64,000 nucleotides of DNA, from assembly GCA_964491805.1 (NCBI GenBank), contig CAZBGU010000001.1, forward strand, positions 1,446 to 65,445, written 5' to 3'. Position numbers and translations under genes: made by a program. Source of the DNA: an uncultured Candidatus Saccharibacteria bacterium (lineage in GTDB: Bacteria > Patescibacteriota > Minisyncoccia > Phycocordibacterales > UBA5272). Positions 11,622 to 34,058 of the stretch are shown piece after piece. Every line of letters starts with the position of its first letter. Position 1 is the stretch's first letter. Below the pieces are notes generated by a model. It saw only the letters and a list, made by a program, of their open reading frames with translations. It searched no databases and was not told the DNA's origin.

Positions 11622-11628
11622 AACTGCC

Positions 11629-16615: not shown

Positions 16616-17428
16616 ATGCCAAGTTATACTAATTCACATTTTATTGTTAGGTTTTTAAAGTTCTTCGGAAGAAATATCTTCAGAAACCTTCCTTTTCTTG
16701 TTGGATACTCGGTTCTCTATTGTAGAAAAGACGTTGCAATAAAAATTAACGAGTATTCATTTGAGGAGGTTTCAGAACTAATACGGCAAGGAAAGTCTTT
16801 AATTCGTTTTGGGGACGGTGAAGTTCATATTATGAACTTTGGGTCCATTCATTACGAGAATTTCAGCAATAGACTTAGATCTATTTTTATGGATATTGTC
16901 AGAGGTTATACATCATCAAGTCCATATGCGCTTGGACTAAATGCTTGGGCTCTTGAAAAGAAGAATTCAGAGCTAAGAGCAAAAGGGCAGCTTTATTGCT
17001 GGCTTCCACTTAAAGTCCAGTATCTTTTTACATTTCCAAAAAATGTAAAGTATTTCGACGCGTCACTTTTTTATCGAAAAAATATTTTTGAACAGTATGT
17101 CCTACCTTGCATACAGAATAAACATATTATTTTGATCTCAAAGAAGGGTAGCTGTGATCATGTAAAGGCGAATAACTTTTTTGAGTCGATCTCTTATGTC
17201 GTCACTCCTGATTTTCACTCGTTTACGAAATTCGATGAGATTTGTAAGGAAGTTGACAATGTCCTTGGTGGTTTGTCACATAGAGATGTAGTGCTTCTTG
17301 TATCATGCGGTCCGGCATCTAAGGCAATTTGTTATCGGTACGCCATGTCTGGTGTGCAGTCTATTGATGTAGGTAGGGGTCTAGAGCTTGTAGGAACAGA
17401 TGAGAGTCTTGAGTTTATGTTATTGTAA
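16616..17428 (+). CDS. Putative DUF1792/GT-D-like glycosyltransferase (paralog A)
   Basis: 'LIRFGDGEVHIM', 'SSSPYALGL'. 270 aa. Paralog of 24539..25351. Confidence 0.35.
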   Translation: MPSYTNSHFIVRFLKFFGRNIFRNLPFLVGYSVLYCRKDVAIKINEYSFEEVSELIRQGKSLIRFGDGEVHIMNFGSIHYENFSNRLRSIFMDIVRGYTSSSPYALGLNAWALEKKNSELRAKGQLYCWLPLKVQYLFTFPKNVKYFDASLFYRKNIFEQYVLPCIQNKHIILISKKGSCDHVKANNFFESISYVVTPDFHSFTKFDEICKEVDNVLGGLSHRDVVLLVSCGPASKAICYRYAMSGVQSIDVGRGLELVGTDESLEFMLL

Positions 17429-17452
17429 TTTTATAATGAACAGCGCGCTTGT

Positions 17453-18166
17453 ATGATACCAAAAAAAATTCACTATATCTGGCTTGGAAGAAACAAAAAG
17501 CCGTCTAACTTCAAAGATGTTTTTGCGAGTTGGGGGAAATTTGCCGGTGATTATGAATTGAAAGAATGGAATGAAGATACATGTAAGGAATTCGAGTTGC
17601 CAAAGATTTTTTATACATTTCTTCAACTGAAAAAATACGCATTTGCATCCGACGTTCTCAGGTTTTATATTTTAAAAAAGTATGGTGGCTTTTATATAGA
17701 CATTGACCAGCTACTGCTTAAAAAGCTTGATGACTTTCTTGATAAGGAACTTGTTTTTTGTAAGTACCATAGTAGGAATGATTACTATGGTTTTGGTTTG
17801 TTTGGTGCATGTGAGGGTAATTATTTTATCGAAAAGATGTGCACGTTTTTTGAGTCAGACAATGAGTATAGTTCAGGAAAGCAGTTTTTTATTATTAATG
17901 TTGTAGGCTCGAAGATGTTAAATGAACTTATTCAAAACGAGCATCTTCCTGTAACTATTTTGGAACAGGAATATTTTCATCCGGAGATAGAAAATAAGTG
18001 GACTGACCATACATATGCACACCACTTATCTAATACTTCATGGGTTGTGTGGTATAAAAAGCTTTTGTACAAGATTCCATATTATTCTTTTTTTAAAAAA
18101 ATAATTATGAAGATTCTTCCAAAAAGTATCAAAAGAAAAATTGGTTTTGATATTACGTATAAATAA
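17453..18166 (+). CDS. GT32-like glycosyltransferase (DXD sugar-binding region)
   Basis: 'KKIHYIWLGRNKKP', 'YIDIDQLL' DxD. Confidence 0.55.
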   Translation: MIPKKIHYIWLGRNKKPSNFKDVFASWGKFAGDYELKEWNEDTCKEFELPKIFYTFLQLKKYAFASDVLRFYILKKYGGFYIDIDQLLLKKLDDFLDKELVFCKYHSRNDYYGFGLFGACEGNYFIEKMCTFFESDNEYSSGKQFFIINVVGSKMLNELIQNEHLPVTILEQEYFHPEIENKWTDHTYAHHLSNTSWVVWYKKLLYKIPYYSFFKKIIMKILPKSIKRKIGFDITYK

Positions 18167-18173
18167 GATTACA

Positions 18174-19238
18174 TCAGCAGGGTTGGGTGTCTCTTCGTGA
18201 GAGCTTATTCATCTTGCTGCTAATTTTTTTGTATAGAGTCTTTCTCCATTTTGCTTCTGATTTTCCAACTAGGTAGCTTACGGTAATCATGCCCGTAGCA
18301 GTAATGATCGAAGATAGGGTTATCATGCCAAATGATTTTCCAAGAATGATACTGCCTATTTTTTGATGAATAAGGTAGAGCGGGTAGGTGATTAGCCCAA
18401 GATTTTTTGCAACTGCGATAACGTGTTTGTTGGTAATAAATTGTGAAATGTATACAACTATAAGAAAAACAATGAATAGCCCAAACACAATGAGCTGCCC
18501 TGTGTGGTCATAGATACCAAACGCATTGGTTCGTGGAAGTGGGTCTGAAGCAAGAACTGAGCTTATATAAAGTGGGGCAACTGCTGATAAGATAAGCGTC
18601 ATCACAGTAGCGAAAACTTCCTCTTTCTTTAGGACTTTATACATACTATAAAGATATGCAATGAGTCCTCCAAAAATAAAATAAGGAGCTTGACGAGCAA
18701 GAAAAACTTTTGATAGAAGGAGATGGTAGAACCCAAAATAAAATGCAGCAAGTGAGATTGAGAGCCATCCTATATAAAAGTAGAGCACTCTTTTAACGTC
18801 AAAGAAATATACAAAAAGTCCAATAAAAAAATAAAACAAAATTTCAATGGTAAGTGTCCAGTACGAACCGTCAATCATGAACGCAGTCTTGCCATTGTTG
18901 ACGATAAGTAAATTGTAGAGGTAAATATGAAAAGGGAGATGGTCTCCACTTGAGGGAATAAGTGTTACTAGGTAGGTGATGGTACACAGAAACCAGAAGA
19001 GTGGGTATAGTCGCAAGAATCTTCCGAGTGTGTAGTCTTTTATATCCTTACCTAAACTAAAAAAAATCACGAACCCACTAATAATAAAGAATAGCTGCAC
19101 CCCGAGCATGCCGTAACTACTAAAGAGAGAAAATATTCCAGACTTTCCAATTAATGAGTGCGAAAAATAGTGAAAGCACATCACTGCAAAAGCTGCCAAA
19201 AAACGTAAAACGTCAACAAGGGGAAAGTAGGAATTCAT
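18174..19238 (-). CDS. Acyltransferase family 3 (OafA/YrhL-type) membrane O-acyltransferase
   Basis: 'VDVLRFLAAFAVMCFHYF' AT3 N-terminal motif. About 10 TM helices. Confidence 0.75.
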   Translation of the reverse strand: MNSYFPLVDVLRFLAAFAVMCFHYFSHSLIGKSGIFSLFSSYGMLGVQLFFIISGFVIFFSLGKDIKDYTLGRFLRLYPLFWFLCTITYLVTLIPSSGDHLPFHIYLYNLLIVNNGKTAFMIDGSYWTLTIEILFYFFIGLFVYFFDVKRVLYFYIGWLSISLAAFYFGFYHLLLSKVFLARQAPYFIFGGLIAYLYSMYKVLKKEEVFATVMTLILSAVAPLYISSVLASDPLPRTNAFGIYDHTGQLIVFGLFIVFLIVVYISQFITNKHVIAVAKNLGLITYPLYLIHQKIGSIILGKSFGMITLSSIITATGMITVSYLVGKSEAKWRKTLYKKISSKMNKLSRRDTQPC

Positions 19239-19284
19239 TAAGGTTCGGCTGTATTTTGCCTTATTCTAACGCATAATCGGTAAA

Positions 19285-21114
19285 ATGTATACTTTAGGTC
19301 AAGCTTACAGCGTCATGTATTCATGTTATAATGGTCCCTATATGGAACAAGAAGATTTTGTGCTTGGTATTCATTATGGGCACGATGCAACGGTAGTTTT
19401 AATGAAGAATGGAGAAGTTGTAGAAGCGATGTCAGAAGAGCGCTTGAGTCGCCAGAAGAAGCATATGGGGTTTCCTGCTGAGTCATTGAGATATATTCAG
19501 AAAAAATACAACCTTCCTTCTTGTAAGAATGTTGTTGTGGTCGGGGAGAACCCAGATTGGGATGGGTACATATTTACGACAAAAGAGGATAATATTGAGA
19601 TACGGAAACATGGCAACCTTCACTCAAAAGATTTTTTAAGAGCAATTGGTTTTAAGTTTCCATTCATTGGTAAACTTATTGGATTGCGTGATATCTTACT
19701 TATTAAGAAGATGACATCAGGTGTCGGTGCACGTGTAGATGCTTTTCTTAAAGAGAGATTGCCGGATGCAACTATTACGCGTATTTCTCATCACCTTGCT
19801 CATGCGTGGGCAACTGTTCCTTTTCTTCCGGATACAAAATCAAAAAGACTTGTGCTTACTTTAGATGGTGCAGGAGATAATTTGTCAGGCTCGATTAACT
19901 TGTACGAAAATGGCATACTCACTCAGTTGCACACGATTCCAATGTCAGCATCCGTAGGGCTGCTGTATTGTGCTGTTGTTGACTTGTTGGGTATGTCTCG
20001 TAACGAACATGAGTTCAAGGTAATGGGTTTGGCACCGTATGCTAAGGCAAGTAGTGGAGAAAAGGTGTATGAAAAGTTAAAGAAGCTTGTCTGGTTTGAT
20101 GAAGAATCTATGACCATACAATCAAGTATTCCGCTAAATCGTGCCACGCCATACCTTCTTGCTAATGAATATTACTATCACCGATTTGATTCGTTGGCAT
20201 ACGGGATACAGAAGTTAACGGAAGAGATAATTAAGGATATGGCACGTGCAGCAATAAAGAAGTATGGCATTGCTGATCTTGCGGTTGGTGGTGGAGTTTT
20301 TATGAATGTAAAGGCAAACCAGTTTTTGCTTGAGCTTCCAGAAGTGAAGAGTCTTGTTGTTGTGCCTTCTTGCGGTGATGAGTCACTTGCAATTGGAGCG
20401 GCAGCTTATGGATTTGTAAATGCGCACAGCGGTGCTATTTCTCAGCTCAAAAAAATTAATAATCTATACCTCGGATCATCGTACTCAAATGAAGAGATTA
20501 AGAAATCTATCGATACATATCCGTATACAAAAGAATGTTCGGTTGTATTTTTTGACCCAAAGAAAGGAGAGAGTATTGAAAAAAAAGTTGCTGAACTTCT
20601 TGCATCAAACAATGTAGTTGGCCGTCTTAAAGGAAGAGCAGAATGGGGTGCTCGTGCACTTGGTAATCGATCGATACTTGCTAACCCATCTTCAAAGGAT
20701 AATGTGAAACTGATTAATGAAATGATAAAAGGGAGAGATTTCTGGATGCCATTTGCAACATCACTTCTTTATGAAGAAAGGAACATCTACCTTGAGGTGA
20801 CAAAAGATTTTTTTGCTCCGTATATGTCGATTACGTTTAATACAAAAGAGAAGGCTCATAAAGAGCTCATCGCTGCGCTTCATCCATATGATCTCACTTC
20901 ACGACCTCAGATGGTGACAAAAGAAATGAATCAAGAGTATCATACACTTATCTCTTCTTTTCATTCTATAACTGGAATAGGTGGGGTGCTTAATACATCT
21001 TTCAATCTGCACGGTGAGCCAAATGTCGAGACACCTTATGATGCGCTGCGAACGTTTGAATTGTCTGGCCTTAAGCACCTTGCACTTGGTGATTATCTTA
21101 TAAGTAAGAAATAG
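19285..21114 (+). CDS. Carbamoyltransferase (NodU/CmcH family)
   Basis: 'LGIHYGHDATVVLMKNGEVVEAMSEERLSRQKKH' N-terminal carbamoyltransferase motif. About 600 aa. Confidence 0.8.
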   Translation: MYTLGQAYSVMYSCYNGPYMEQEDFVLGIHYGHDATVVLMKNGEVVEAMSEERLSRQKKHMGFPAESLRYIQKKYNLPSCKNVVVVGENPDWDGYIFTTKEDNIEIRKHGNLHSKDFLRAIGFKFPFIGKLIGLRDILLIKKMTSGVGARVDAFLKERLPDATITRISHHLAHAWATVPFLPDTKSKRLVLTLDGAGDNLSGSINLYENGILTQLHTIPMSASVGLLYCAVVDLLGMSRNEHEFKVMGLAPYAKASSGEKVYEKLKKLVWFDEESMTIQSSIPLNRATPYLLANEYYYHRFDSLAYGIQKLTEEIIKDMARAAIKKYGIADLAVGGGVFMNVKANQFLLELPEVKSLVVVPSCGDESLAIGAAAYGFVNAHSGAISQLKKINNLYLGSSYSNEEIKKSIDTYPYTKECSVVFFDPKKGESIEKKVAELLASNNVVGRLKGRAEWGARALGNRSILANPSSKDNVKLINEMIKGRDFWMPFATSLLYEERNIYLEVTKDFFAPYMSITFNTKEKAHKELIAALHPYDLTSRPQMVTKEMNQEYHTLISSFHSITGIGGVLNTSFNLHGEPNVETPYDALRTFELSGLKHLALGDYLISKK

Positions 21115-21177
21115 ATAACAAGAATCTAGGTTAGAGAATATATCAAAAAGCGTATTTTGTTGTTGATGTGCATAAAA

Positions 21178-22290
21178 TTATTTTTTGCTCTCTTTGATTG
21201 CTTGCACTAGATTTTTGCAAACATAAGCAATTTCTTTTTTGGTTAGCTCTGAAAAAAATGGTAATGCGATAGTGTGTTTGGATATCTCTTCAGTAATCGG
21301 AAAGTCTCCTTCTTTGTGTCCAAAGTCTTCTCTGTAAAACTTTTGAAGGTGAATAGGAGGGAAGTAGATGTTAGTTGAGATGCCTTTCTCTTTAAGAATA
21401 GCAATAACGTTATCTCTGTTAACTTTCTTAGAGACCTGTATTACAAAAACAAACCAGCTCTCCTTGTTATTCTTAGCAATTGTTGGAAGGATGATATCTT
21501 TGTTACCTTGTAGTAATTTGAAATACTCCTTTGCAACTGATTCACGCAACGTTAGTAGTTTATTAATTTTTTTCAACTGAGTGATACCGAGAGCACAACT
21601 CATCTCATCGAGCCGGTAGTTGTAGCCAATTCTACTATGACCAAGCCAAGCCATTGAGTCTCTTCCTTGATTTTTGTGACTCTTGCTTAATGCGGCAATT
21701 TCGTCGCTGTTGGTAACAATCATACCGCCTTCACCTGTTGTAATTTGTTTGTTTGGATAAAAAGCAAATACAGCAGCATCACCGAATGTGCCCGCCTTTT
21801 TCCCTTTGTGAGTAGCACCTATTGCTTCACACGCATCTTCTATAACGAGAAGTTTGTGTTTTTTTGCTATCTTCATGATTGCTGTCATGTCACACATTTG
21901 ACCAAATACATGAACAACGAGAATAGCTTTTGTTTTTGGTGTTATTGCTGCTTCTATCTTTTTTGGGTCGATATTGTAGGTTTTCTTATCGATATCAACG
22001 AAAACAACCTTTCCCTTTTCGAACAAGATGCAGTTAGCTGATGCTACGAAACTAAATGGGGTAGTAATAACTTCATCACCGTCTTGTATTCCCATAGACT
22101 TAATGATGAGATGGAGTCCTGATGTTCCGCTATTGACTGCGATTGCATGTTTCACACCAATGTATCCGGCAAAGGTCTCTTTGAATTCCTGAAGTTTTGG
22201 ACCAAGACTCAGAGTTCCAGATTGGAGCACCTCCGTTACCGCCGCGATGTCTTTTTTATCAATATGTGGTTTGCTTAGTCTGACTTTCAT
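21178..22290 (-). CDS. DegT/DnrJ/EryC1/StrS-family PLP-dependent sugar aminotransferase
   Basis: 'AIAVNSGTSGLHL' and a conserved Lys region. 370 aa. Confidence 0.85.
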   Translation of the reverse strand: MKVRLSKPHIDKKDIAAVTEVLQSGTLSLGPKLQEFKETFAGYIGVKHAIAVNSGTSGLHLIIKSMGIQDGDEVITTPFSFVASANCILFEKGKVVFVDIDKKTYNIDPKKIEAAITPKTKAILVVHVFGQMCDMTAIMKIAKKHKLLVIEDACEAIGATHKGKKAGTFGDAAVFAFYPNKQITTGEGGMIVTNSDEIAALSKSHKNQGRDSMAWLGHSRIGYNYRLDEMSCALGITQLKKINKLLTLRESVAKEYFKLLQGNKDIILPTIAKNNKESWFVFVIQVSKKVNRDNVIAILKEKGISTNIYFPPIHLQKFYREDFGHKEGDFPITEEISKHTIALPFFSELTKKEIAYVCKNLVQAIKESKK

Positions 22291-22455: not shown

Positions 22456-23097
22456 ATGCAATTGCCATCAAAAAAGATAATTGTGCTTGGTGGAGGTGGT
22501 CAAGCGAAGGTGCTCATCGACGTCCTCTTGCAGCTTCCTGAATATCAGGTCGTTGGTTTTCTGGATGACAACGAAGCAAACACAGAGCTTCTTGGTGTCA
22601 AGAGGGTCGGGAAACTGACAGTAGTTGACCAAGCTCTTGAGACGAACGTGCTCGCACTTGGTCTTGGGCATGTCGGGCACCCTGACTTCTTGAAGAGAAC
22701 GGTTGAGATGTATACCAAAGCCGGTTTTTCATTCGAGACTATCATCTCGCCCGCAGCAACAGTCTCAAGGTTTGCCAAGCTTGGTCATGGAGTAGTAGTT
22801 GCTGCGGGAGCTGTCATTCAGCCTCTCGTAGAAATTGCTGACTATTGCATCGTTAACACCAATGCATCGGTTGACCATGATTGTAGGGTTGGTGCTTTCA
22901 CCCATATCGCACCAGGTACAGCAATCTCAGGAAATGTCACCATCGGGGCTTCATGCCTTCTTGGGACGGGGTCACGTGTCATCCAGGGGGTGAAGATCAC
23001 AGATGGTTGCATTGTCGGTGCGGGTGCGGTCGTGGTATCAGATTGCAACGAAAGTGGGACATATGCAGGTGTTCCTGCGGTCCGTTTTTATAAATAA
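22456..23097 (+). CDS. NeuD/PglD-family sugar N-acetyltransferase (left-handed beta-helix)
   Basis: 'KKIIVLGGGGQAKVLIDVL' N-terminal domain plus hexapeptide repeats. Confidence 0.7.
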   Translation: MQLPSKKIIVLGGGGQAKVLIDVLLQLPEYQVVGFLDDNEANTELLGVKRVGKLTVVDQALETNVLALGLGHVGHPDFLKRTVEMYTKAGFSFETIISPAATVSRFAKLGHGVVVAAGAVIQPLVEIADYCIVNTNASVDHDCRVGAFTHIAPGTAISGNVTIGASCLLGTGSRVIQGVKITDGCIVGAGAVVVSDCNESGTYAGVPAVRFYK

Positions 23098-23260: not shown

Positions 23261-24514
23261 ATGACTAAGATTAAAAAAATAATTGGTATCTTTATAAATT
23301 TTCTTGGTCAGAAGTTCAGTTTTGACGCTCATTATTTTGCCAAGAATACGTTTTGGTTACTTCTTGGACAAGGGATAGCGTCAGTGTCGATGTTTGCAGT
23401 TACTGTTGTACTTGCTAACAACGTACCAAAGAGTGTTCTCGGTGATTACAGGGTCATTATCTCGGTCTACTCGACTCTGACCTTCTTTGCACTTTCGGGT
23501 ATAACTCCTGCGCTTACTCGTTCTATTGTTAATGGCTACGATGGATCACTTGCTCTTGCTTTGACGACAAAGAAAAAGTATAGCCTGCCCGCCTTCTTTG
23601 TCGGTATTGGTATTTCATTTTATTTTTGGGTAGTGCGAGATAATCCTATTTTTGGCATAAGTTTTCTTATTATGTCACTTTGCTTACCCATAATCGAAGC
23701 ATATGCTTTGTATGTGCCGTATTTACAGGGGAAGCACGAGTTCAAATTCAGCTCTTTAAGTACAGGTATACTGCGACTCTCTTCCAGCGTGGTAGTTGCT
23801 ATTGTGGCATATCTTCATCCGACTACTATATATATAGTTGGAGCTTTTTATGGAGCGCAGGCTCTTACTTTATTTGTGCAGTACAAGGTCCTTATTGCAA
23901 AATTCCCTCCAGAGAATACTAATGAAGATAAGGATATGATACCGTATTCACGCCATACGACATTCGCTGGGTTGTTTTATATGATACTTGGCCAGGCAGA
24001 TAAATTCATTATGTATCATTTTTTCGGGTCGATATCTCTGGCGTCCTATTGGATAGCCTCTACAATTCCTCAAGAAGTTGGGAAAATAACAAATGCCGCA
24101 CTTCAAGTGGCATATCCAAAATTTGTAAAAGGGGATCATAGTACCATTAAGCCAGTTCTTGTTAAAAAGCTAGTAACATTAACGTGGGTCTTTGTCGCTA
24201 TTTCTTGTGTCTACGCATGTGTAGCTTTTCCGTTTTTTCATATCTTCTTCCCTATGTATATTGATCAAGTCTGGAAATCGATTGTGCTTATGTTTGGATT
24301 TGCTGTCGTGCCCCATATTTTTGTGTGGCAGTACTATATTGCGCAAAGAAATGTTAAAGTTATGTATATAAGTAATGCCGCAGATCCTATTCTTCAGGTT
24401 GTTCTTGTTGTTGCTTTTGTTCCGTTCTTTGGTGTGTGGGGGTTTGTATATTCTGTTGTAGCAAAAACACTTATACTAAACATACTTGCCTGGTATGTTC
24501 TTAGACGTTATTAG
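23261..24514 (+). CDS. Wzx-like oligosaccharide flippase (MOP superfamily)
   Basis: About 12 TM helices. Polysaccharide-biosynthesis-protein N-terminus. Confidence 0.65.
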   Translation: MTKIKKIIGIFINFLGQKFSFDAHYFAKNTFWLLLGQGIASVSMFAVTVVLANNVPKSVLGDYRVIISVYSTLTFFALSGITPALTRSIVNGYDGSLALALTTKKKYSLPAFFVGIGISFYFWVVRDNPIFGISFLIMSLCLPIIEAYALYVPYLQGKHEFKFSSLSTGILRLSSSVVVAIVAYLHPTTIYIVGAFYGAQALTLFVQYKVLIAKFPPENTNEDKDMIPYSRHTTFAGLFYMILGQADKFIMYHFFGSISLASYWIASTIPQEVGKITNAALQVAYPKFVKGDHSTIKPVLVKKLVTLTWVFVAISCVYACVAFPFFHIFFPMYIDQVWKSIVLMFGFAVVPHIFVWQYYIAQRNVKVMYISNAADPILQVVLVVAFVPFFGVWGFVYSVVAKTLILNILAWYVLRRY

Positions 24515-24538
24515 TAGTTAATATAAAAACTAATTTAT

Positions 24539-25351: not shown

Positions 25352-25360
25352 CAAAATCGC

Positions 25361-26320
25361 TTAGAGACCTTGCTGTGTATCTTTCTTTGGTCTGAAGTAA
25401 TTTTTCTTGGCAAGAAATGTATCAAACTCTTTTTTTGATATCGCTTTTTCCGAGCTAAAACTTACATCTTCAATGGTGAGTTTGTTAATTATGTTCTTGT
25501 GATGAACTAAAAAGACATTTCTCTCTCTGTGGAATTTTGCTCTAGGGATTTCATGTTCAGCAAAGAGGTGTTCGTGAATTTTTTCTGAAAGTCTTGGGAC
25601 ACCCATTTCCCAACGAAGACCAAACTTTTCTGTAAAGATATCAAATAAGTCTTTTACTTTGAATGCCTTGACGTTAGGGATCACATTGTACCCGGTATGT
25701 TTAAGTGCGTATTCGATGTACTCAGCTGCCTCATCTATGTCCATCATGAAGCGTGTCATGTCTTTTCCGTACAATTTGAGACTGTAGTTGTTTGCAATAG
25801 AGTCCCACATAAGTGGAAGTACAGATCCAGCCGAGTCTAGTAGGTTGCCAAAAACTACGGTTGATAGTTTTGTTTTTTCTTTCTCTGCATCCATGATGAA
25901 TGCTTCACCGGCGACAAGTTTCATCGCACCATAGAGCGTCGTCGGGTTTCTGCTTTTATCAGTAGAAACAAATGTTGCTGCCTTTAGTTTGTTTTTTATT
26001 GCCGCTTTTCTTGAGTTTAGTGCCCCTTGAATAATAACCTCAACAGCCTCACTAACATTTTGATTGACTGCTTCAATCTGCTTGAGCGATGCAGTGAAAA
26101 TCGCAATAGTGTGACCCTTCATTGATTCTTCAAGAAGTTCATAGTTTCTTATATCTCCAACCACACAGCGAATATTAGGAAATTGTTTCTTAAGGAAGTA
26201 GTGCTTATTTTCATCACGACTAAAAATGGTCACCTCATTGTCCTTGTAAAATCTCTTCACAAGAGCCCTTCCTAGTGATCCTGCCCCTCCTGTTATAAAG
26301 ATTTTTTCATTTTTTAACAT
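25361..26320 (-). CDS. UDP-GlcNAc 4,6-dehydratase (PseB/PglF/CapD-type, NAD-dependent)
   Basis: 'IFITGGAGSLGRALVKRF' Rossmann motif. 319 aa like PseB/FlaA1. Confidence 0.8.
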   Translation of the reverse strand: MLKNEKIFITGGAGSLGRALVKRFYKDNEVTIFSRDENKHYFLKKQFPNIRCVVGDIRNYELLEESMKGHTIAIFTASLKQIEAVNQNVSEAVEVIIQGALNSRKAAIKNKLKAATFVSTDKSRNPTTLYGAMKLVAGEAFIMDAEKEKTKLSTVVFGNLLDSAGSVLPLMWDSIANNYSLKLYGKDMTRFMMDIDEAAEYIEYALKHTGYNVIPNVKAFKVKDLFDIFTEKFGLRWEMGVPRLSEKIHEHLFAEHEIPRAKFHRERNVFLVHHKNIINKLTIEDVSFSSEKAISKKEFDTFLAKKNYFRPKKDTQQGL

Positions 26321-26530: not shown

Positions 26531-27613
26531 ATGAAAGATAATAAAGGAAAAGTTTTTTTTGTATGTTTTATTGATGGCTATTTTAAAGCGCTTCATTCTT
26601 TTTCTGCTTCTCAAAATTACTACCTCTACCCACTTCTTTTGGCTGTAGATGTTGGGTACAAACCGGTAGCTATTGTTAGAGGCGGGGCTGATCTTATGCT
26701 GACTGACCCTCATTTTCATGATGCTATCAAGGTTATAGAGTATACAAATGGTTTCCAATACTTTTACTTACTTATCAAGTATTCCTTACATCAGTCTATT
26801 TTTTATATTAATAGTCATACTTTGCCATCGTACTTCTCTCTTGTCATTTCAAAACTATTTTTATGTAAAACTATTTTTATGGGGCATATTCAGCCAAAGA
26901 GAACAACTAAGTTTAGACAGTTTATTTTTAATACCGTATTATTTTTTGTCGACAAGGTTAGACTAAATAATGATTCAGAAAAAGCCTTTCTCATTGAGCA
27001 AAAGATTGACCCACGCAAATTGCATACTGTGCCTTTAGTGGTTAATAATTCTGCTTTTTATAGGATTAATAATGATTACTCTACAAGGAAAGATATAGTC
27101 TATTATGGTAATACAACCCGGCAAAAAGGGCTGCCGACAATATTTGAGGCATTTACAATTGTTAAACATGAGTTTCCTGATGCTCTACTTCACCTTGTTG
27201 GAAGTAAAGGGGACTACGATCCAAAAAATGACATAGATACATACAACATAAAAGATAACGTTGTTATTCATGGTCCATATAACCATGGCAAAGATCTTAA
27301 CTCATTATTAAATTCTTTTCTTGTTTTTGTGATATCGACGAAAGGGGAAGGGCAGTGTCTTGCTGTGTATGAGTCAGCTCTTGCTGGTAACGCTCTTTGT
27401 CTTCCTAGGATCATGTCATTTCAGGAAGTCTTTAAGGACAAGGCATTATTTCATGATCTTAATGATGCTCATGGTTTGGCTAAGAACATAATTACGTATC
27501 TGAAAGACATTGAATTGATTAAAAGTTATAACGATGACTGTATTGAAATGATACAAACAGGGTACAGTGAACATGCTATAGAGAAAAAAATAGTTTCCCT
27601 ACTTACCTTTTAG
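26531..27613 (+). CDS. Glycosyltransferase family 4 (GT-B, Glycos_transf_1)
   Basis: C-terminal 'EGQCLAVYESALAGNALC' E-x7-E region. Confidence 0.65.
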   Translation: MKDNKGKVFFVCFIDGYFKALHSFSASQNYYLYPLLLAVDVGYKPVAIVRGGADLMLTDPHFHDAIKVIEYTNGFQYFYLLIKYSLHQSIFYINSHTLPSYFSLVISKLFLCKTIFMGHIQPKRTTKFRQFIFNTVLFFVDKVRLNNDSEKAFLIEQKIDPRKLHTVPLVVNNSAFYRINNDYSTRKDIVYYGNTTRQKGLPTIFEAFTIVKHEFPDALLHLVGSKGDYDPKNDIDTYNIKDNVVIHGPYNHGKDLNSLLNSFLVFVISTKGEGQCLAVYESALAGNALCLPRIMSFQEVFKDKALFHDLNDAHGLAKNIITYLKDIELIKSYNDDCIEMIQTGYSEHAIEKKIVSLLTF

Positions 27614-27620
27614 GAGGTGT

Positions 27621-28550
27621 TTATATACAGAGTATATTTGTTTGGGTTTCTACTCTTTTTAGAAATTCAGGAATGATGTTTTTTGTAATCTCCTTTCTTT
27701 TGTCGTCGAGATCATAAATTTTATAACCAAGATCAAAAATGTAGTGCAAAAATTCTTCACTCGAGATATCCATTTTATTGTAAAAGATAGGAGAGAACTC
27801 TACGATCATTTTCGGATGATATTTTTCAATCGACTTCCTCATTCCTTGAAGTGCATAAAATTCATATCCCTCAACATCTATTTTAACAAAATCAATAACA
27901 CCTCTATCGTGCCAAAACTCGTCAAAGATTTTTGTTTCTGCTTTTATTACATCACTTGCACCAAGTCTTTTTTTAAACGTCGTGTTACCCATGTTTAGGT
28001 TGTTTAGATAAATATCTTTTACTTCATTTGTGTTAGATAGTCCGAAATTGCATACTTCGATATTCGTGAGATTGTTCTTAGTAACACTGTCATGTATCTG
28101 ATCTGTTAACTTTTTTATCGGATCAAAAGCGTAGATCTTTCCATTTTTGGCTACTTTAGCCATGTATAGCGCATGTTGTCCAATGTTGGAACCAATATCA
28201 AGACAGGTGCTGTCAGTACGCAGATGTGTTCTTATCTCGCGAAGCATATCCGCCTCCCATACACCCTTAGAATAGATTTCCTTATCAACAAGACCGTTAT
28301 GTGGGTCGAGTTTTATCTCAAATGAAATATCATCAAGCAAAACTTTTTTATAAAGCGGTTTAGTGAAATGAATAAGTGAAAGCTCTTCTTTCTCTCTTTT
28401 GTTGTGGTCAGACAGAAAATATCTTCCATATTTAAATACTTTGTAAAAAAAGAAGTACATAGTATCTGGTAAATATTTTTTTAAAACTGTTTTCACTGCG
28501 TTTATGATTTTTGGCATATGTTTATTGTGTTGTATGTAAGTTAGAGTCAA
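27621..28550 (-). CDS. FkbM-family methyltransferase
   Basis: 'CLDIGSNIGQHALYMAK...IYAFDP'. Confidence 0.7.
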   Translation of the reverse strand: MTLTYIQHNKHMPKIINAVKTVLKKYLPDTMYFFFYKVFKYGRYFLSDHNKREKEELSLIHFTKPLYKKVLLDDISFEIKLDPHNGLVDKEIYSKGVWEADMLREIRTHLRTDSTCLDIGSNIGQHALYMAKVAKNGKIYAFDPIKKLTDQIHDSVTKNNLTNIEVCNFGLSNTNEVKDIYLNNLNMGNTTFKKRLGASDVIKAETKIFDEFWHDRGVIDFVKIDVEGYEFYALQGMRKSIEKYHPKMIVEFSPIFYNKMDISSEEFLHYIFDLGYKIYDLDDKRKEITKNIIPEFLKRVETQTNILCI

Positions 28551-29295
28551 ACACTTCTTTTAGTTGTCTGACGACAAGCGGGGTATATATTTTGAAATTA
28601 AGATTAACTTTTTTTCTTGCAACTATTGGTAATCTGTCAGCAATATAAACTATTTTATCACTAACTGATAGTAATTTCTTTGCGCCTCTGTTAGTTAGTA
28701 TATAAGCTCCAGCAAAAGACGGGGTCTTAATTGGGCTGATTGCGCAGTTTTTGTACACCGTTATCTGAATTTGTTCCAAAGAGAGAAGCGCTAAAAGATA
28801 GATACCTTTCATGAGTGACGTTGCTATAAAGAAAGTTTTTTCGAGAATGCCTTTCTTCTGTCTGGCGATGTCTTTTATTCCAGGTAGCCACAGATTGAAA
28901 AAATCAAGACCGTATGCAAAGTAGTCAAAAGATAAGTAGTCCCACTTGCTGCCAGATGTGTTTTTGGCAATCTCTCGTTCTACTATTTCTTTGAAGTTGT
29001 CAGGCAGGGTTACGTCGTCCTCAAGAACGAGCCCGTATGATATCTTTTCATTGTAAACTTTTTCTTGAGCAGTCCTGTGAGAGAGCGCACACCCTAGTTC
29101 TCCGTCGTTAAGGTCATCTTGTATATTCTTTTTTTTGTCGTAGTGTTTCTTTTTCTCTTCTTCAGTTAGGTTTTTGCCATACACTGCAGGTATACGCACA
29201 TACTCGATCGAAAGTTTTTTAAGTTGCTTGTCCATAAAGGCAAGCCTCTCGCTGTCTTTATCTAGGTTGATGAGATAACATGAAAATGATTGCAT
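28522..29295 (-). CDS. Glycosyltransferase family 25 (LPS-type)
   Basis: 'CYLINLDKDSERLAFMDKQLKKLSIEYVRIPAVYG' GT25 N-terminal signature. Confidence 0.7.
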   Translation of the reverse strand: MQSFSCYLINLDKDSERLAFMDKQLKKLSIEYVRIPAVYGKNLTEEEKKKHYDKKKNIQDDLNDGELGCALSHRTAQEKVYNEKISYGLVLEDDVTLPDNFKEIVEREIAKNTSGSKWDYLSFDYFAYGLDFFNLWLPGIKDIARQKKGILEKTFFIATSLMKGIYLLALLSLEQIQITVYKNCAISPIKTPSFAGAYILTNRGAKKLLSVSDKIVYIADRLPIVARKKVNLNFKIYTPLVVRQLKEVFDSNLHTTQ

Positions 29296-29391
29296 AAAAG
29301 TAAAATCAACTTGAATAGATTCATAGTAACACGAAAGACAGTATCTAAAAAAGAATGTGTATGGTACACTCCTTGATACAATTCATAACGT

Positions 29392-30111
29392 ATGTGGACA
29401 GCAAAACTTCAGCACAATAATAGGACAGAAGGAAGCGATGAAGGGTATAAAGGAATTCCTATTTTTGCTGGTTACAAGTTACACGAAACTTCATTTAAAA
29501 TTTTTACAAAATATTGCAAGGATACAAACGCGCGTATTCTTGTCTTGGGTGCTGGTGCTGGTGCGTTCGACCAGAGGTTGATAGATCATAATTTCAAAAA
29601 TATTCTTGCTGTAGAGTATCACAAAGAAATATACAGACCAGATGCTGAGGTCGTAAGCAGGGACCTCAATGAAGACTTTAACGATCTTGGACTGTTCGAT
29701 GTTGTTATCGCAATAGAAATAATCGAACACATCGAAAATCATTTTCATTTTGTAAGACAGATAAAGGATTTACTTAAGGATGATGGCGTGGCACTAATCA
29801 CTACGCCAAATGTTGAGAGCCCTATTTCAAGGATTAAATTTTTCTTACGTGGAGATCTCAGTTGTTTTACTCCTCACGAGATTAGTGACACCGGTCACAT
29901 AAATCCAATTTTTAAAAATATTTTTGTTGCACATCTTAAGAGTTGTGGATTGCGCCTACGGGAAGTTGCATACAGTACTACGTTGTGGGACATGAATCAG
30001 TTCTCTGGAATCACCCAGAAGCTATCCATGATTGTATTTAGAATTATGTCTTTGGTGATGCGAAATAAAACCGGGGGACAACTGTCTATCTTTGTTATCT
30101 CAAAAGAATAA
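29392..30111 (+). CDS. Class I SAM-dependent methyltransferase
   Basis: 'ILVLGAGAGAFD' motif I, 'LITTPNVE'. The start is uncertain. Confidence 0.5.
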   Translation: MWTAKLQHNNRTEGSDEGYKGIPIFAGYKLHETSFKIFTKYCKDTNARILVLGAGAGAFDQRLIDHNFKNILAVEYHKEIYRPDAEVVSRDLNEDFNDLGLFDVVIAIEIIEHIENHFHFVRQIKDLLKDDGVALITTPNVESPISRIKFFLRGDLSCFTPHEISDTGHINPIFKNIFVAHLKSCGLRLREVAYSTTLWDMNQFSGITQKLSMIVFRIMSLVMRNKTGGQLSIFVISKE

Positions 30112-30145
30112 TTTAAGACCCGCTTGTTTTACTTTCTGATATATT

Positions 30146-30922
30146 TTATGGTCGAATCAGGATTCTGATTGTTCTCATGCATATGTATATCCAAAATGTC
30201 GGATGAGTTAGAAGTCTCGCTTCTTTGCTTTCATATATAATTGTCAATAAGGTCTCTAACTGTTGTGTACGAGATCGCTTCCTAAAATTAAGACCGTCAG
30301 TTGAGTCGTAGCCGTCAGTGATGGTGCTGTTATGGTCGTGGTAGTAAGCTCGCTCATAAAGACCAAGTTGGAAGAAAAAAAACCATTCGTCTGCTTGTTT
30401 TACGTGATTCAAAAAGTGTATCTTGTTATGATCTATACATTTTTTTTCTATACAGTGTGTAACATCACCTTTCCATCTCCTCAGTATTAAGTAGTCTTTT
30501 GCATATAAATAGAATTTCTCGTCTCCAGGAAGCGATGAGATTGGCTTGCCATTTGTGTAGGCGCGATTCGTTATGAACCACTTTGTGTCACTATGGAGAA
30601 GGATTAAATCATGGAATGTTTGGAGTGTGTCAGGGGAAAAGTAGTCATCATCATCAAGGAAAATAATCCAACGCGAATCGGCAGATGTGTATTTAATTGC
30701 CTGGTTTCTGGTATAGTTGACGCCCTTGTTAATTTCGTTGACATGATAATGTATACGAGGGTCGTTAATCGATGAGGCAAAGTTCGTGTAATGAGTGTCA
30801 CTCGGAGAATCATTAACAATGATCATCTCCCAATGCTTATACGTTTGGTTTCTCAAGGAGTTAACCGCCCTCTCTAGACGGTCTGCACGCTTATAAGTTG
30901 GTGTGATGATACTAAAGAGCAT
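30146..30922 (-). CDS. Glycosyltransferase family 2
   Basis: 'FSIITPTYKRADRLERAVNSLRNQTYKHWEMIIVNDSPSD'. Confidence 0.75.
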   Translation of the reverse strand: MLFSIITPTYKRADRLERAVNSLRNQTYKHWEMIIVNDSPSDTHYTNFASSINDPRIHYHVNEINKGVNYTRNQAIKYTSADSRWIIFLDDDDYFSPDTLQTFHDLILLHSDTKWFITNRAYTNGKPISSLPGDEKFYLYAKDYLILRRWKGDVTHCIEKKCIDHNKIHFLNHVKQADEWFFFFQLGLYERAYYHDHNSTITDGYDSTDGLNFRKRSRTQQLETLLTIIYESKEARLLTHPTFWIYICMRTIRILIRP

Positions 30923-30932
30923 AGTAAGATAG

Positions 30933-31661
30933 TTAATCGAACCCTAAGATTTTTTTAAGAAGTGATTTTATTTTCAATTTTTCTGTTACTTTCACACCGA
31001 ATGAGTGGAGTCCAGTTTTCTTAAAAAATTTATTGAGTGGATTTCCCCATGAGTAGTTCCACCAGTGTACTGAGTATGTTTCATCTTTAATGTCTTTGTA
31101 GGAAAAATTTTTTATAGTTTCTTTGCTGTATGGATAAAATGCCGTATGTGTATAGATATGAACACCATCGATGTCCTGTTCTTTTTCTGTGAGTGTCCCT
31201 GCGTCAAGTTTTTGCTTTAAGAGTTCTGTCATTATGACTGGTGTCGGGGTTCTTGGGTGATCACCGTCATACCACTTGAGTGCACGTTCAACAAAAGGGT
31301 GGTTAGGTTCTGCTCCCATCATCGCATTATTAATATATGTAGAGTCTTCAAAACCCATGAACGCTGCATGTGAGAGCAGAGGGGAAATGTCTCGAACGAG
31401 TTCCATGTCAGTATCTACATAGACACCCCCCATCTTCTTTAGTACATCAAGACGCACAAAATCAGAAACGAAAGCCCACTTTTTTGCAGCAAGTGCATCT
31501 TTTGCATACTTTGGAGCCTTGCTTAGGTCGTACGTGTCCTCGTTCCACTCCATGATTTGCCAGTCAGGGCAATATGTTTCCCAGCTTTTTATACATCGTA
31601 GGATTAGTTTATCCTTTGGGTTTCTTCCAAACCAGCAATAGTGAATAATTTTTGGGATCAT
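30933..31661 (-). CDS. GT32-like glycosyltransferase (DXD), paralog of 17453..18166
   Basis: 'MIPKIIHYCWFGRNPK', 'YVDTDMEL'. Start chosen at MIPKIIH. Confidence 0.55.
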   Translation of the reverse strand: MIPKIIHYCWFGRNPKDKLILRCIKSWETYCPDWQIMEWNEDTYDLSKAPKYAKDALAAKKWAFVSDFVRLDVLKKMGGVYVDTDMELVRDISPLLSHAAFMGFEDSTYINNAMMGAEPNHPFVERALKWYDGDHPRTPTPVIMTELLKQKLDAGTLTEKEQDIDGVHIYTHTAFYPYSKETIKNFSYKDIKDETYSVHWWNYSWGNPLNKFFKKTGLHSFGVKVTEKLKIKSLLKKILGFD

Positions 31662-31829
31662 AAAATATAAGTTATATGTCGAAAGTATACCATTTAGCTG
31701 CTGAACTTCTCTGTGTAGTAGTGTTATTATTATTTTGGCAAAAAACAAACCACCCTGGTAATAAATATGCTCTATGATACACTTCATTCATTATTCCGTA
31801 TAATCAGGTAAAAAGTAGTAATTTTACGT

Positions 31830-34058
31830 ATGCAAAATTTTATAAAGAAAGCTGTGTGGTTGTGTCTTGCTATTGTGCCATTTATTGTGCTGCATGTTGC
31901 AGACGGGGGGCTTTTTGATGTGCTCAGTTGGTTTGGTGGATCAGGAATGTTCTTCCCATTTATTTCCGGGAAGAATCTTATATTTAGAATTCTCGTAGAA
32001 ATTGCATTTGCAGGATGGGCAGTTCTTGCTTTGTATGACTCTTCATATCGAATTAATATTAGAAAATCACCGATAATGATTGCGTACGGACTTTTCATTA
32101 TTGTTTTGCTTCTTGCTGATATTTTTGGTGTTGATCGTGAGAAGAGTATGTGGAGTAACTTTGAAAGAATGGAAGGATTTGTTGGTCATATCCATTTCTT
32201 TGCGTACTTCTTCGTTCTGACTGTTATGATTCGCACACTGCAGGATTGGCAGAAGTTGTGGAAGATGTTTATCGCTGCTGATGTTCTTGTTCTTTTGTAT
32301 GCGATCGGGCAGTTTCTTGGTGCAAAGGGGCTTGTTTTCTCTAATAATTTTCCAAAAGCAGCAGAGTGGTTTGCATCGCGATTTGCTGTGCACATGAGTG
32401 AAAACAGACTTGATGCAACGATCGGTAACTCGGCGTACTTTGCTATCTTCTGTCTCATGTATGTGTTCCTCGCTGCACTGCTCTGGTCTCAGTCTAAAGA
32501 ACCAAAGAAGCAATGGTTCTATCCTGTGCTTATGTTTGTTAACACGCTTGGTGTTCTTTACTCTGGAACGCGTGGAACAATGATAGGTTTGATTGTTGGT
32601 GCTTTTGTTTCACTCGGTATCATGGCATGGAAAGAGAAAGGCAGTTCGGGTTCTCTTATGAGAAAAATTTTTGCAGTGGCTTCCATTGCTTTAGTCCTCT
32701 TTATTTCTTCGGTTTTTATCTTTAAGAATAGTGCGTTTGTTAAGTCTTCTTCAGTTCTGACACGTATTTCGACTATTTCTCCTCATGACATTACAGGTGC
32801 AAGTCGACTTTCTATGTGGCAGATAAGTTTTGAAGCGTGGAAGGAGAGACCGCTTCTTGGGTATGGACAAGACAACTTTAGCTATGTATTTGCTCGCAAG
32901 TTTCTTCCAGAGAGAATGTGTAACCTTGAACCATGGTATGACAGATCTCATGATGTGTTTTTTGATTGGTTAGTTGCCGCCGGCACATTGGGTCTTTTAA
33001 CGTATCTTTCTTTGTACGGAGTTACGTTGTGGTTTATGTGGAAGAGAAAAGATCATTCAATGCCTCTCTCTGAGAAAGCGATTTTGACGGGTATGATTGT
33101 CGGTTACTTCGTTCATAATGTTTTCGTTTTCGATAACCTTACAAGTTATATTCTCTTCTTTGCCCTCTTAGCTTATATTACTGTTAGGACACGAGAAGAA
33201 TTACCCTCGCACGGTCACCCACTGTTTGATATGGACCAGATGAATCTTCTTATTGTTCCTGTCATAGGTCTCACACTCCTTGTTACTCAGTACTACGTTA
33301 ACTATAGACCTCTAGTTGTAAATCGTCTTGTTATTAAAGCTATGAGCTTTAGTAATTACGCAAAGACGATGCCATTTGCAGATGCTGTTAAAATTCAACA
33401 AAATGCATTTACAGATGCAATAGCAATGAATACGCTTGGAAGTATTGAAGCTCGTGAGCAGTTCCTTCAGATGTCTGTGCGTATGGCACAAATCAAGATC
33501 CCAGATACTCTTCCAGCAGGGGAGAAACAAGCAACAACACAAGCTCTAAACAACCTCATGCTTGCTGCAAGGAATGATGTTGAAAAATCATACCCTTCAT
33601 ACAATGAAGATGTTCGTATGCTTTCGATTTATGGACTTTTCTTTAACGGTATCGGAGACTCTGCTTCTGCAGAAAAAGTGCTCAAGGAAGCGATTAAATA
33701 TGCTCCTAATAAGCAGCTTGTTGCATATGATTTGATTCGCGCCTATCTATTGCAAAGAAAGTTTGCAGATGCATATGCGCTTGGCCGTACAACGTACGAT
33801 CTTTCAATCACATGTGCAGATGCACTAAGATGGTATCTCGTTAGTGCTTCTTATGCTGGTCAGTATATGGAGGCGAAAGCGTACGCTGCATCAAAGGGGC
33901 AGAACCCACCTGTTGACCAGGATGTCATTGCTGGAGTTCTTAATTCAGGTCAGATTTCTCTTGGAATAGAACTTCTCAACCAGCTCAAGAAATCTGATCC
34001 AAGCCTTGCACCTCAAATTGACGCGTATATAAAACAACTGCTTGTCCAAAAGAAATAG
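31830..34058 (+). CDS. O-antigen ligase/Wzy-family membrane protein fused to C-terminal TPR repeats
   Basis: Multi-TM. 'YSGTRGTMIGLIVGAF' Wzy_C-like motif. C-terminal ~250 aa TPR-like helical repeats. Confidence 0.6.
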   Translation: MQNFIKKAVWLCLAIVPFIVLHVADGGLFDVLSWFGGSGMFFPFISGKNLIFRILVEIAFAGWAVLALYDSSYRINIRKSPIMIAYGLFIIVLLLADIFGVDREKSMWSNFERMEGFVGHIHFFAYFFVLTVMIRTLQDWQKLWKMFIAADVLVLLYAIGQFLGAKGLVFSNNFPKAAEWFASRFAVHMSENRLDATIGNSAYFAIFCLMYVFLAALLWSQSKEPKKQWFYPVLMFVNTLGVLYSGTRGTMIGLIVGAFVSLGIMAWKEKGSSGSLMRKIFAVASIALVLFISSVFIFKNSAFVKSSSVLTRISTISPHDITGASRLSMWQISFEAWKERPLLGYGQDNFSYVFARKFLPERMCNLEPWYDRSHDVFFDWLVAAGTLGLLTYLSLYGVTLWFMWKRKDHSMPLSEKAILTGMIVGYFVHNVFVFDNLTSYILFFALLAYITVRTREELPSHGHPLFDMDQMNLLIVPVIGLTLLVTQYYVNYRPLVVNRLVIKAMSFSNYAKTMPFADAVKIQQNAFTDAIAMNTLGSIEAREQFLQMSVRMAQIKIPDTLPAGEKQATTQALNNLMLAARNDVEKSYPSYNEDVRMLSIYGLFFNGIGDSASAEKVLKEAIKYAPNKQLVAYDLIRAYLLQRKFADAYALGRTTYDLSITCADALRWYLVSASYAGQYMEAKAYAASKGQNPPVDQDVIAGVLNSGQISLGIELLNQLKKSDPSLAPQIDAYIKQLLVQKK

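Follow-up and report, generated by a model that had tools for sequence, protein, structure and literature searches.

A candidate surface-glycan island in a Paceibacterota genome, with an amino-sugar module and a linked acylation cassette

In Megavirus chilensis, the inverting UDP-GlcNAc 4,6-dehydratase/5-epimerase Mg534 (Protein Data Bank, PDB, entry 4tqg) forms UDP-4-keto-D-QuiNAc as its first product, and its partner Mg535, an RmlD-like protein of 270 amino acids (aa), completes UDP-L-RhaNAc (PMC9614988). A Wzy_C membrane domain followed by a C-terminal tetratricopeptide repeat (TPR) domain is the architecture of PglL and of WsfB, a candidate O-oligosaccharyltransferase for Gram-positive S-layers (PMC2943079); the pilin oligosaccharyltransferase TfpW also has a periplasmic TPR domain, and the PglL_A motif (PF15864) was defined in PMC3643930. 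Here we describe a locus with a dehydratase and a Wzy_C-TPR protein of these kinds in a 64-kb stretch of contig CAZBGU010000001.1, referred to below as the window. Comparison with related loci makes it reasonably probable that a glycan island occupies a fixed chromosomal site in Paceibacterota, within the Candidate Phyla Radiation (CPR), and that the locus is this genome's form of it.

On balance, and with moderate confidence, the locus is taken to specify a lipid-linked, decorated surface glycan bearing an amino sugar, which would be flipped by a Wzx-type protein and transferred by the Wzy_C-TPR protein. A sequence-only reading of positions 16616-34058 had already proposed a locus for a surface glycan carrying carbamoyl, methyl and acyl modifications, and the family assignments support a lipid-linked, Wzx-dependent system with these decorations. 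Every gene that it named is an intact open reading frame (ORF) with Pfam or NCBIfam matches; all 16 gene calls of the segment are backed in this way, each scoring above its Pfam gathering score, all listed ORFs are intact, and independent gene calls on an identical 23-kb Logan contig (a public assembly) yield the same genes. By its sequence relationships the window is a Paceibacterota (CPR) genome; homologues of the dehydratase and the Wzy_C-TPR protein are found overwhelmingly in metagenome-assembled genomes named Candidatus Paceibacterota, Parcubacteria or Pacebacteria.

A variable island at a conserved site

Contexts of dehydratase homologues were fetched as related loci of about 20 kb (given L numbers below), and their ORFs were labelled by BLASTP against the window proteins; the genome-collection scan with the dehydratase returned at least about 16 close loci. 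In Paceibacteria the site is bordered on one flank by the series TP_methylase-(DUF4015)-TrwB/DUF87-LTD/PKD, and on the other by Wzy_C(-TPR) and then TsaD-RlmH-HTH-MurA or MurB. Between these flanks, the relatives share a core consisting of the Wzy_C-TPR gene, a GT32-like gene (b in the lists below), a 256-aa GT2, GT25, GT-D, Wzx, the dehydratase, and FkbM or class I methyltransferases. The DegT/acetyltransferase pair, carbamoyltransferase, AT3, GT4, a further GT32-like gene (a), an acyl cassette, formyltransferase, GT9 and others are variable modules. The fetched locus with flanks nearest to the window's, L002 (78% identity for TsaD, 80% for RlmH, 86% for the helix-turn-helix (HTH)-MurA protein), lacks more than 10 of the window's genes; its Wzy_C-TPR protein is 59% identical, the 256-aa GT2 and the dehydratase 65%, and the GT32-like, GT25 and GT-D proteins 36-49%, and its gene content differs. 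The shared site and core with variable modules thus contradict the possibility, raised with the sequence-only reading, of a mosaic of unrelated operons; gene order was compared and synteny is conserved in the lineage. Such behaviour resembles that of O-antigen and capsule loci.

The left edge at 16616 is arbitrary, as closely spaced genes of the same strand extend the cluster upstream as far as about 10186. Under the favoured model, the island would span from about 10186 to about 34150. G+C content in the locus is 0.34-0.38, lower than in its flanks (0.40-0.44). At 6947-10173 on the plus strand, a TrwB/DUF87-type ATPase gene precedes that of a secreted protein with LTD and PKD domains and Ser/Thr-rich stretches; the pair forms the conserved left flank of the island in many relatives, and the LTD-PKD protein (8842-10173) may be a surface glycoprotein.

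The amino-sugar module and its dehydratase

Three genes of the window bear on the amino sugar:

25361..26320, minus strand: predicted UDP-HexNAc 4,6-dehydratase of the Polysacc_synt_2 class ('DH46'), core gene
21178..22290, minus strand: DegT-family sugar aminotransferase, with C-4 amination presumed (PF01041, 428 bits)
22456..23097, plus strand: N-acetyltransferase of the NeuD/PglB/VioB family, PglD_N domain plus left-handed beta-helix (LbH; PF17836 and Hexapep)

Eight loci with DegT were compared, namely the window, L088, L089, L090 and L171-L174, the relatives' DegT proteins being 70-81% identical to that of the window. In 8/8 the LbH acetyltransferase is the immediate neighbour of DegT, and in 8/8 a member of the dehydratase family is present; GMD, a cupin 3,4-ketoisomerase and a 3-dehydrogenase were found in none of them. 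Match lists indicate further contigs that have the dehydratase, DegT and Wzy_C-TPR together. The three enzymes, treated as a unit in the sequence-only reading, very probably do work together, and their linkage in all eight loci favours UDP-2,4-diacetamido-2,4,6-trideoxyhexose, of unassigned configuration (D-gluco, L-altro or other), as the best reading of the product.

A set of ATP-citrate-lyase-like genes (ATP-grasp_2/Citrate_bind, CoA_binding/Ligase_CoA and Citrate_synt) lies between the N-acetyltransferase and DegT genes of L174 (7240-9967), and such genes also lie beside the dehydratase in L090 (1213-4081). They may provide acetyl-CoA locally in an organism with a reduced metabolism, and their placement fits with acetyl-CoA-dependent N-acetylation.

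Among proteins of solved structure, the dehydratase is closest to Mg534 (4tqg; 1e-36, 31% identity), followed by PseB/FlaA1 (2gn4; 8e-34, 34%), CapE (3vvb; 1e-31), an FnlA-type enzyme (4j2o; 7e-31) and Pen/CapD (6bwc; 5e-30). The match to PglF/WlaL (5bjy; 3e-17) is far weaker than those to the inverting enzymes, and PseB is the best NCBIfam profile (162.7 bits against an equivalog cut-off of 407.75). The dehydratase is therefore regarded as probably inverting. A UDP-viosamine product, considered while 4tqg was taken to be the UDP-glucose dehydratase R141 of Mimivirus, was dropped since the literature shows the entry to be Megavirus Mg534.

A sub-clade of the dehydratase, consisting of the window protein, P0001, P0003, P0010 and the L171 protein, has the motif VVFGNLLDS (window residues 155-166), versus (V/A)(I/V)YGNVxNS in more than 30 other orthologues; at the same position Mg534 has VRYGNVLNS and PseB VRYGNVVGS. 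Of the 17 CPR loci whose dehydratase carries the usual motif, 16 have an RmlD_sub_bind-like gene of 262-267 aa within about 10 bp after the dehydratase gene, and a GT2 gene of about 340 aa usually lies divergently before the latter; no solved relative of the RmlD-like reductase was detected by sequence. Neither the reductase nor this GT2 has any trace in the window (tblastn E>1), where a GT-D gene (b) abuts the dehydratase stop codon and a GT4 gene is the divergent neighbour, standing where relatives have the ~340-aa GT2. The two sub-clade members of known context, those of the window and of L171 (gene 7424-8428), both lack the reductase and both have DegT and the acetyltransferase, and the motif variant may represent specialisation after loss of the partner. 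Only these two of the DegT loci are without the reductase. The other 6/8 retain it, which indicates that the amino-sugar branch is normally added to the reductase branch; a replacement of one branch by the other across the lineage was rejected on the same count. Cultured Flavobacteriia (L016-L019, Polaribacter, Flavobacterium) also have orthologues of this enzyme, 52% identical and with the YGNVLNS motif, some of which adjoin MBOAT or DegT genes, and these bacteria are cultivable hosts in which the enzyme activity could be assayed.

The sequence-only reading had named the product UDP-diNAc-bacillosamine, made by a PglFED-equivalent pathway with a D-gluco outcome. All three enzyme classes occur here in genetic linkage, the acetyltransferase has a PglD_N domain and is 37% identical to the Neisseria PglB acetyltransferase domain (PglB-ATD), and the retained D-xylo 4-keto sugar is an intermediate of inverting dehydratases or is slowly set free by them. 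Set against this are the much weaker PglF match (3e-17 versus 1e-36), the rank of PglE (1o61; 6e-47) at about 33 among solved aminotransferases, and the orthology of the dehydratase to an enzyme that is paired with an RmlD-like reductase; for L-QuiNAc and bacillosamine, both of which it produces, Moumouvirus uses two separate dehydratases (PMC9614988). With inverting enzymes matching the dehydratase far better than PglF does and a perosamine synthase heading the DegT matches, the bacillosamine-type label was not retained, and true bacillosamine is considered possible but rather unlikely. It was also proposed that a refutation would come from better matches to unrelated pathways, such as GDP-sugar or dTDP-sugar types. 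The best PDB matches of the aminotransferase and acetyltransferase are perosamine enzymes, and that of the dehydratase is a UDP-GlcNAc enzyme, Mg534.

DegT and the acetyltransferase could, then, be unrelated to the local dehydratase and act on GDP-4-keto-6-deoxymannose, supplied by a GMD encoded elsewhere, to give GDP-N-acetylperosamine. The top PDB match of DegT is the Caulobacter GDP-perosamine synthase (6e-79; PseC follows at 1e-52) and that of the acetyltransferase is PerB (2e-31, 39.5% identity), homologues are automatically named 'perosamine synthetase' by JGI, and the FkbM methyltransferase of the locus also matches the V. cholerae RfbT family. No GMD, ManB or ManC is present in the window or the related DegT loci, though, and a Polysacc_synt_2 dehydratase accompanies DegT in all eight. 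The acetyltransferase, which is placed in its family by TIGR03570 (NeuD/PglB/VioB; 203 bits, above the cut-off of 161), is equally close (37.1%) to the UDP-bacillosamine enzyme of Neisseria, with VioB and PglD weaker, and PseC leads the NCBIfam ranking of DegT (346.4 bits, under the cut-off of 423.5). A perosamine product is thus judged improbable. Since the perosamine and bacillosamine matches are about equal and identity of some 40% does not fix specificity in these families, the configuration and, strictly, the nucleotide carrier are not set by the sequences, and the amino sugar is not nameable from them; the preferred reading remains a UDP-linked diacetamido-trideoxyhexose.

Acylation, decoration and final transfer

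Upstream of 16616 are eight same-strand genes (10186-16553), separated by 62 bp from the first GT-D gene:

10186..10554, plus strand: AcpS-type phosphopantetheinyl transferase, first gene of the cassette (Pfam ACPS; NCBIfam acpS, 70 vs 59.8)
10581..11621, plus strand: FkbH-domain protein (TIGR01686, 288 bits vs cut-off 147)
11569..12564, plus strand: class I S-adenosylmethionine (SAM) methyltransferase (Pfam Methyltransf_23/12/31)
12575..12799, plus strand: acyl carrier protein (ACP), 74 aa (NCBIfam ACP subfamily; PP-binding in orthologues)
12801..13217, plus strand: MaoC-type dehydratase (PF01575 on the Logan gene call; NCBIfam enoyl-CoA hydratase match)
13222..13974, plus strand: FabG-like ketoreductase of the SDR family (Pfam adh_short/KR; NCBIfam 3-oxoacyl-ACP reductase below cut-off)
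13980..15437, plus strand: DltB-like MBOAT membrane acyltransferase (Pfam MBOAT, 80.9 bits)
15441..16553, plus strand: 370-aa MBOAT partner with an N-terminal membrane anchor; invariant Ser80 and Asp324-x-x-His327 in the family alignment

The pair of MBOAT and partner genes occurs in 8/8 DegT loci and in 0/12 dehydratase loci that lack DegT (within ±10 kb), a co-occurrence with a Fisher p of about 8e-6, uncorrected for phylogeny. In L173 the order is GT-D, partner, MBOAT, ketoreductase, MaoC, ACP, FkbH, phosphopantetheinyl transferase, Wzx, acetyltransferase, DegT. This position in the middle of the locus in relatives makes the cassette part of the system, and shows again that 16616 is not a real boundary. 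The AcpS-type gene lies inside the glycan locus in L088, L089, L090, L173 and L174; the cassette methyltransferase has no counterpart inside the cassette of the same five loci. L171 has an AMP-binding ligase and a PP-binding protein instead of FkbH and retains MaoC, ketoreductase, MBOAT and partner, an exchange of loader that follows Dlt-like logic by analogy. L171 also contains two MBOAT systems (2157-4750 and 15688-21113), one with an ALGX-domain partner and the other Dlt-like without FkbH. When metagenomes were scanned with the MBOAT, most matches were distant AlgI-like MBOATs of unrelated bacteria; the cassette accompanied just one of them (L091), so the co-occurrence sample was not enlarged.

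From its family, the FkbH protein is predicted to charge the ACP with a glycerate-derived C3 unit. The suggestion in the sequence-only reading that a C3 acyl group from the upstream cassette decorates the glycan has gained genetic linkage (8/8 versus 0/12), while its acyl chemistry is read from the FkbH family only. For the MBOAT, the top NCBIfam profile is DltB (170 bits, under an equivalog cut-off of 375). Its partner always follows it in the eight loci and is probably an extracytoplasmic transferase of the SGNH/DltD-like kind. Weak DUF1574 and GDSL matches were obtained for 2/8 family members; the window's protein had no Pfam match and nothing in phmmer against PDB, hhalign of the family with the ALGX-domain paralogue gave 5% probability, and a single-sequence AlphaFold2 model had a pLDDT of 37.

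The Wzy_C-TPR gene and the remaining glycan genes are as follows:

31830..34058, plus strand: Wzy_C membrane domain plus C-terminal TPR domain of about 250 aa, 742 aa in all
23261..24514, plus strand: Wzx-type flippase (PF01943 Polysacc_synt, 51.6 bits vs cut-off 28.2)
16616..17428, plus strand: GT-D (DUF1792) glycosyltransferase a (PF08759, 51.5 bits)
24539..25351, plus strand: GT-D (DUF1792) glycosyltransferase b, core gene (PF08759, 47.2 bits); orthologues in most relatives, 40-57% identity
17453..18166, plus strand: GT32-like DXD glycosyltransferase a (PF04488, 47.7 bits); no orthologue among the compared loci and thus specific to the window there
30933..31787, minus strand: GT32-like DXD glycosyltransferase b, core gene (PF04488, 60.5 bits)
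26531..27613, plus strand: GT4 glycosyltransferase (PF00534)
28522..29235 (alternative start to 29295), minus strand: GT25 glycosyltransferase, core gene (PF01755, 101.5 bits)
30146..30922, minus strand: GT2 glycosyltransferase, core gene (PF00535, 90.7 bits)
18174..19238, minus strand: AT3 membrane O-acyltransferase (PF01757, 96 bits)
19285..21114, plus strand: NodU/CmcH/TobZ-type O-carbamoyltransferase (Carbam_trans_N and Carbam_trans_C)
27621..28517 (Logan start; longer call to 28550), minus strand: FkbM-family methyltransferase (PF05050, V_cholerae_RfbT; TIGR01444, 93.5 bits)
29392..30111, plus strand: class I SAM methyltransferase (PF13489)

The carbamoyltransferase has a Kae1-like N-terminal domain (PF02543, 105 bits) and a YrdC-like C-terminal domain (PF16861, 188 bits); every PDB relative is an O-carbamoyltransferase (7xb6, NovN, TobZ, GdmN), orthologues in L022 and L088 are 60-63% identical, and the score against the NodU equivalog (82) lies below its cut-off of 1000.

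Hydropathy of the Wzy_C-TPR protein indicates about 12 transmembrane helices, a large loop at 299-375 with the Arg and His motifs of Wzy_C, and a C-terminal helical domain of 250 aa. In a classical Wzx/Wzy system it would be a polymerase, producing a long heteropolysaccharide (capsule or wall polymer) that an LCP-type enzyme from another part of the genome would attach. The locus does hold a Wzy_C-domain protein together with Wzx, several core glycosyltransferases are conserved in relatives, so that a conserved polymerised linkage is possible, and the PglL_A motif is absent. On the other side, the Wzy_C protein is the sole one of its kind here, and Pfam scans of all substantial ORFs found no Wzz/PCP chain-length regulator, tyrosine kinase, LCP protein or STT3 in the 64-kb window, and the first three are missing from the related 20-kb loci too. 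The protein is 57-83% identical across more than 120 homologues (732-801 aa where full-length) despite the variable content of their loci. Such conservation is unusual for Wzy polymerases, which are typically variable. The best fold match is the ligase WaaL, to which a TPR domain is added, and seven glycosyltransferases together with capping-type methyl and carbamoyl groups are better suited to a single large oligosaccharide. For these reasons the Wzx/Wzy-dependent heteropolysaccharide of the sequence-only reading was not established, and a polymerase is regarded as a doubtful, though not negligible, option. Conservation, a WaaL-like fold and the TPR domain favour instead an en-bloc ligase or O-oligosaccharyltransferase.

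Type IV pilins are possible O-glycosylation acceptors. Two tandem pilin genes (50757-51212 and 51233-51688), 97% identical and each with a Ser/Thr-rich stretch (SGITATSTEICSSSVATSSCTG), belong to the pilin genes that lie nearest to the Wzy_C-TPR gene, 13-18 kb away; the pilus cluster also includes PilB (43941-45611), PilC (45577-46947) and pseudopilins (46953-47402 and 49659-50189). The region's best terminator-like hairpin (34126-34145) is just past the Wzy_C-TPR stop codon, and promoter and terminator scans showed no enrichment over shuffled sequence.

Elsewhere the window encodes TsaD, RlmH, two tRNAs, a pair resembling an insertion sequence (IS), the type IV pilus cluster, MurB, an HTH-MurA fusion, FtsZ and FtsA. 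Between Wzy_C-TPR and TsaD, about 1.1 kb (34059-35175) holds only ORFs without a family match. The segment 36943-40342 has tRNA-Val and tRNA-Glu, then the IS-like pair (an HTH_38 protein, 38639-39364, and an rve integrase, 39428-40342), plus about 1.5 kb without recognisable genes. At 41028-42554 on the plus strand, L,D-transpeptidase (YkuD) and D-Ala-D-Ala carboxypeptidase (Peptidase_S11) domains are joined in a single protein. MurA (52611-54125, minus strand; EPSP_synthase fold) carries a fused N-terminal XRE-type HTH domain, and this fusion, 86% identical in L002 and also in L003, is a conserved feature of the lineage.

Proposed assembly and comparison with known systems

Gene content, family matches, synteny, the co-occurrence of modules and the lack of the reductase and of a priming enzyme in the window are observed; from these we infer the following substrates, order of steps and role of Wzy_C-TPR. 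A priming enzyme encoded elsewhere would start the oligosaccharide on a carrier lipid, on the cytoplasmic side of the membrane; as the sequence-only reading had noted, the 64-kb window has no priming phosphoglycosyltransferase (Bac_transf or Glycos_transf_4, by Pfam scans of all substantial ORFs), nor do the related 20-kb loci. Seven glycosyltransferases (two GT-D, two GT32-like, GT4, GT25 and GT2) would build the chain, with a 4-acetamido-4,6-dideoxy-HexNAc as one building block. For this sugar, the dehydratase would convert UDP-GlcNAc to a 4-keto-6-deoxy intermediate, DegT would aminate C-4, and the PglD-like enzyme would N-acetylate the resulting amine. The corresponding dehydratase of relatives would also feed the RmlD-like reductase towards an L-RhaNAc-type 6-deoxy sugar, whereas here the missing reductase and ~340-aa GT2 would restrict the intermediate to the amino-sugar branch. 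The O-carbamoyltransferase and two methyltransferases would decorate the glycan in the cytoplasm before Wzx flips it. Outside, it would be modified by the AT3 acyltransferase and by a system resembling Dlt: FkbH would charge the ACP with a C3 acid, MaoC and the ketoreductase would tailor it, and the MBOAT with its 370-aa partner would transfer it. Finally, the Wzy_C-TPR protein would hand the glycan to a surface acceptor, en bloc as a ligase or O-oligosaccharyltransferase, and less likely as a repeat-unit polymerase.

Several points weigh against this scheme. None of the enzymes reaches an equivalog level (PseB 163 against 408 bits, PseC 346 against 423.5), the top solved relatives of the aminotransferase and acetyltransferase use GDP-perosamine, and the substrate and inverting or retaining behaviour of the dehydratase are not readable from sequence. 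To our knowledge, the L-altro sugar to which an inverting route would lead is otherwise encountered only as an intermediate of pseudaminic acid, and PseG, PseI and PseF were not found in the window. The co-occurrence counts come from related, non-independent genomes. In the Wzy_C-TPR protein the PglL_A motif (PF15864) was not detected (hmmscan, E<=0.01), and conservation would also be compatible with a polymerase, provided that the linkage it forms is itself conserved.

CPR bacteria (Patescibacteria) are believed to spend their lives attached to other cells, and their surface glycans likely matter for attachment and phage recognition; we know of almost no experimental work on such glycans, and no account of this type of locus in the CPR was found in literature searches. 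We regard it as a new instance of a familiar class of gene cluster and not as a new mechanism. Three features deserve mention: the island and its Wzy_C-TPR transferase are conserved in the lineage, the reductase branch has been lost alongside a change in the dehydratase motif, and the amino-sugar module is coupled to an acylation cassette of the FkbH/ACP/MBOAT type. The three soluble enzymes, the membrane transferase and the acylation system are concrete, testable targets. A broader and quite tentative proposal is that Paceibacteria generally possess an en-bloc system, in which a Wzy_C-TPR O-oligosaccharyltransferase or ligase of relaxed specificity would serve a serotype-like hypervariable island, with surface proteins such as the type IV pilins or the LTD-PKD protein as targets. 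In the window's sub-lineage, the diacetamido-trideoxyhexose would then be obligatorily coupled to a new Dlt-like esterification using an FkbH-loaded, glycerate-derived acyl-ACP instead of D-alanine.

Compared with the Mg534/Mg535 route to UDP-L-RhaNAc, also known from bacterial WbvB/WbvR-type enzymes, the window dehydratase is similar in length (319 versus 323 aa) and has the STDK...YxxxK catalytic motif in common with Mg534, and the ~263-aa RmlD-like gene after the dehydratase in related Paceibacteria corresponds to Mg535 after Mg534. The window differs in having DegT and the acetyltransferase instead of a reductase, and the 31% identity is low. The PglFED pathway and its Neisseria counterpart (PglD, PglC and PglB-ATD) have the same succession of dehydratase, DegT and PglD_N-LbH N-acetyltransferase, the same product class, a 2,4-diacetamido-2,4,6-trideoxyhexose, and a glycan used in a Wzx/Wzy_C-type system; unlike PglFED, the window has a soluble dehydratase of the inverting-like class and neither a PglC-type priming transferase nor PglB (STT3). 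Of the pseudaminic acid pathway, PseB and PseC give the top NCBIfam profiles for the dehydratase and aminotransferase, but both scores lie well under the equivalog cut-offs, and the acetyltransferase is of the LbH type and not the GNAT-type PseH, which, like PseG, PseI and PseF, was not found in the window.

For final transfer, PglL, Paenibacillus alvei WsfB and WaaL resemble the window protein in the Wzy_C domain with an Arg and His loop and in the C-terminal TPR; the gene lies at the edge of the glycan locus and is conserved while the glycan genes vary, with type IV pilin genes 13-18 kb away. It differs from them in its much greater length of 742 aa, the undetected PglL_A motif, the lack of an adjacent pilin or S-layer gene, and the lack of lipid A-core genes. 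In acylation, the closest parallels are Dlt (DltA-D) and AlgI/AlgJ/AlgX, which similarly use a carrier protein, a DltB-like MBOAT and a membrane-anchored Ser/Asp/His partner, and in the relative L171 the carrier loader is an AMP-binding ligase, as is DltA. Unlike in Dlt, the MBOAT of the window scores below the DltB cut-off, its loader is FkbH, implying a glycerate-derived C3 unit, with tailoring by MaoC, ketoreductase and methyltransferase, and the cassette is set in a Wzx-type glycan locus, where it is co-inherited with the amino-sugar module.

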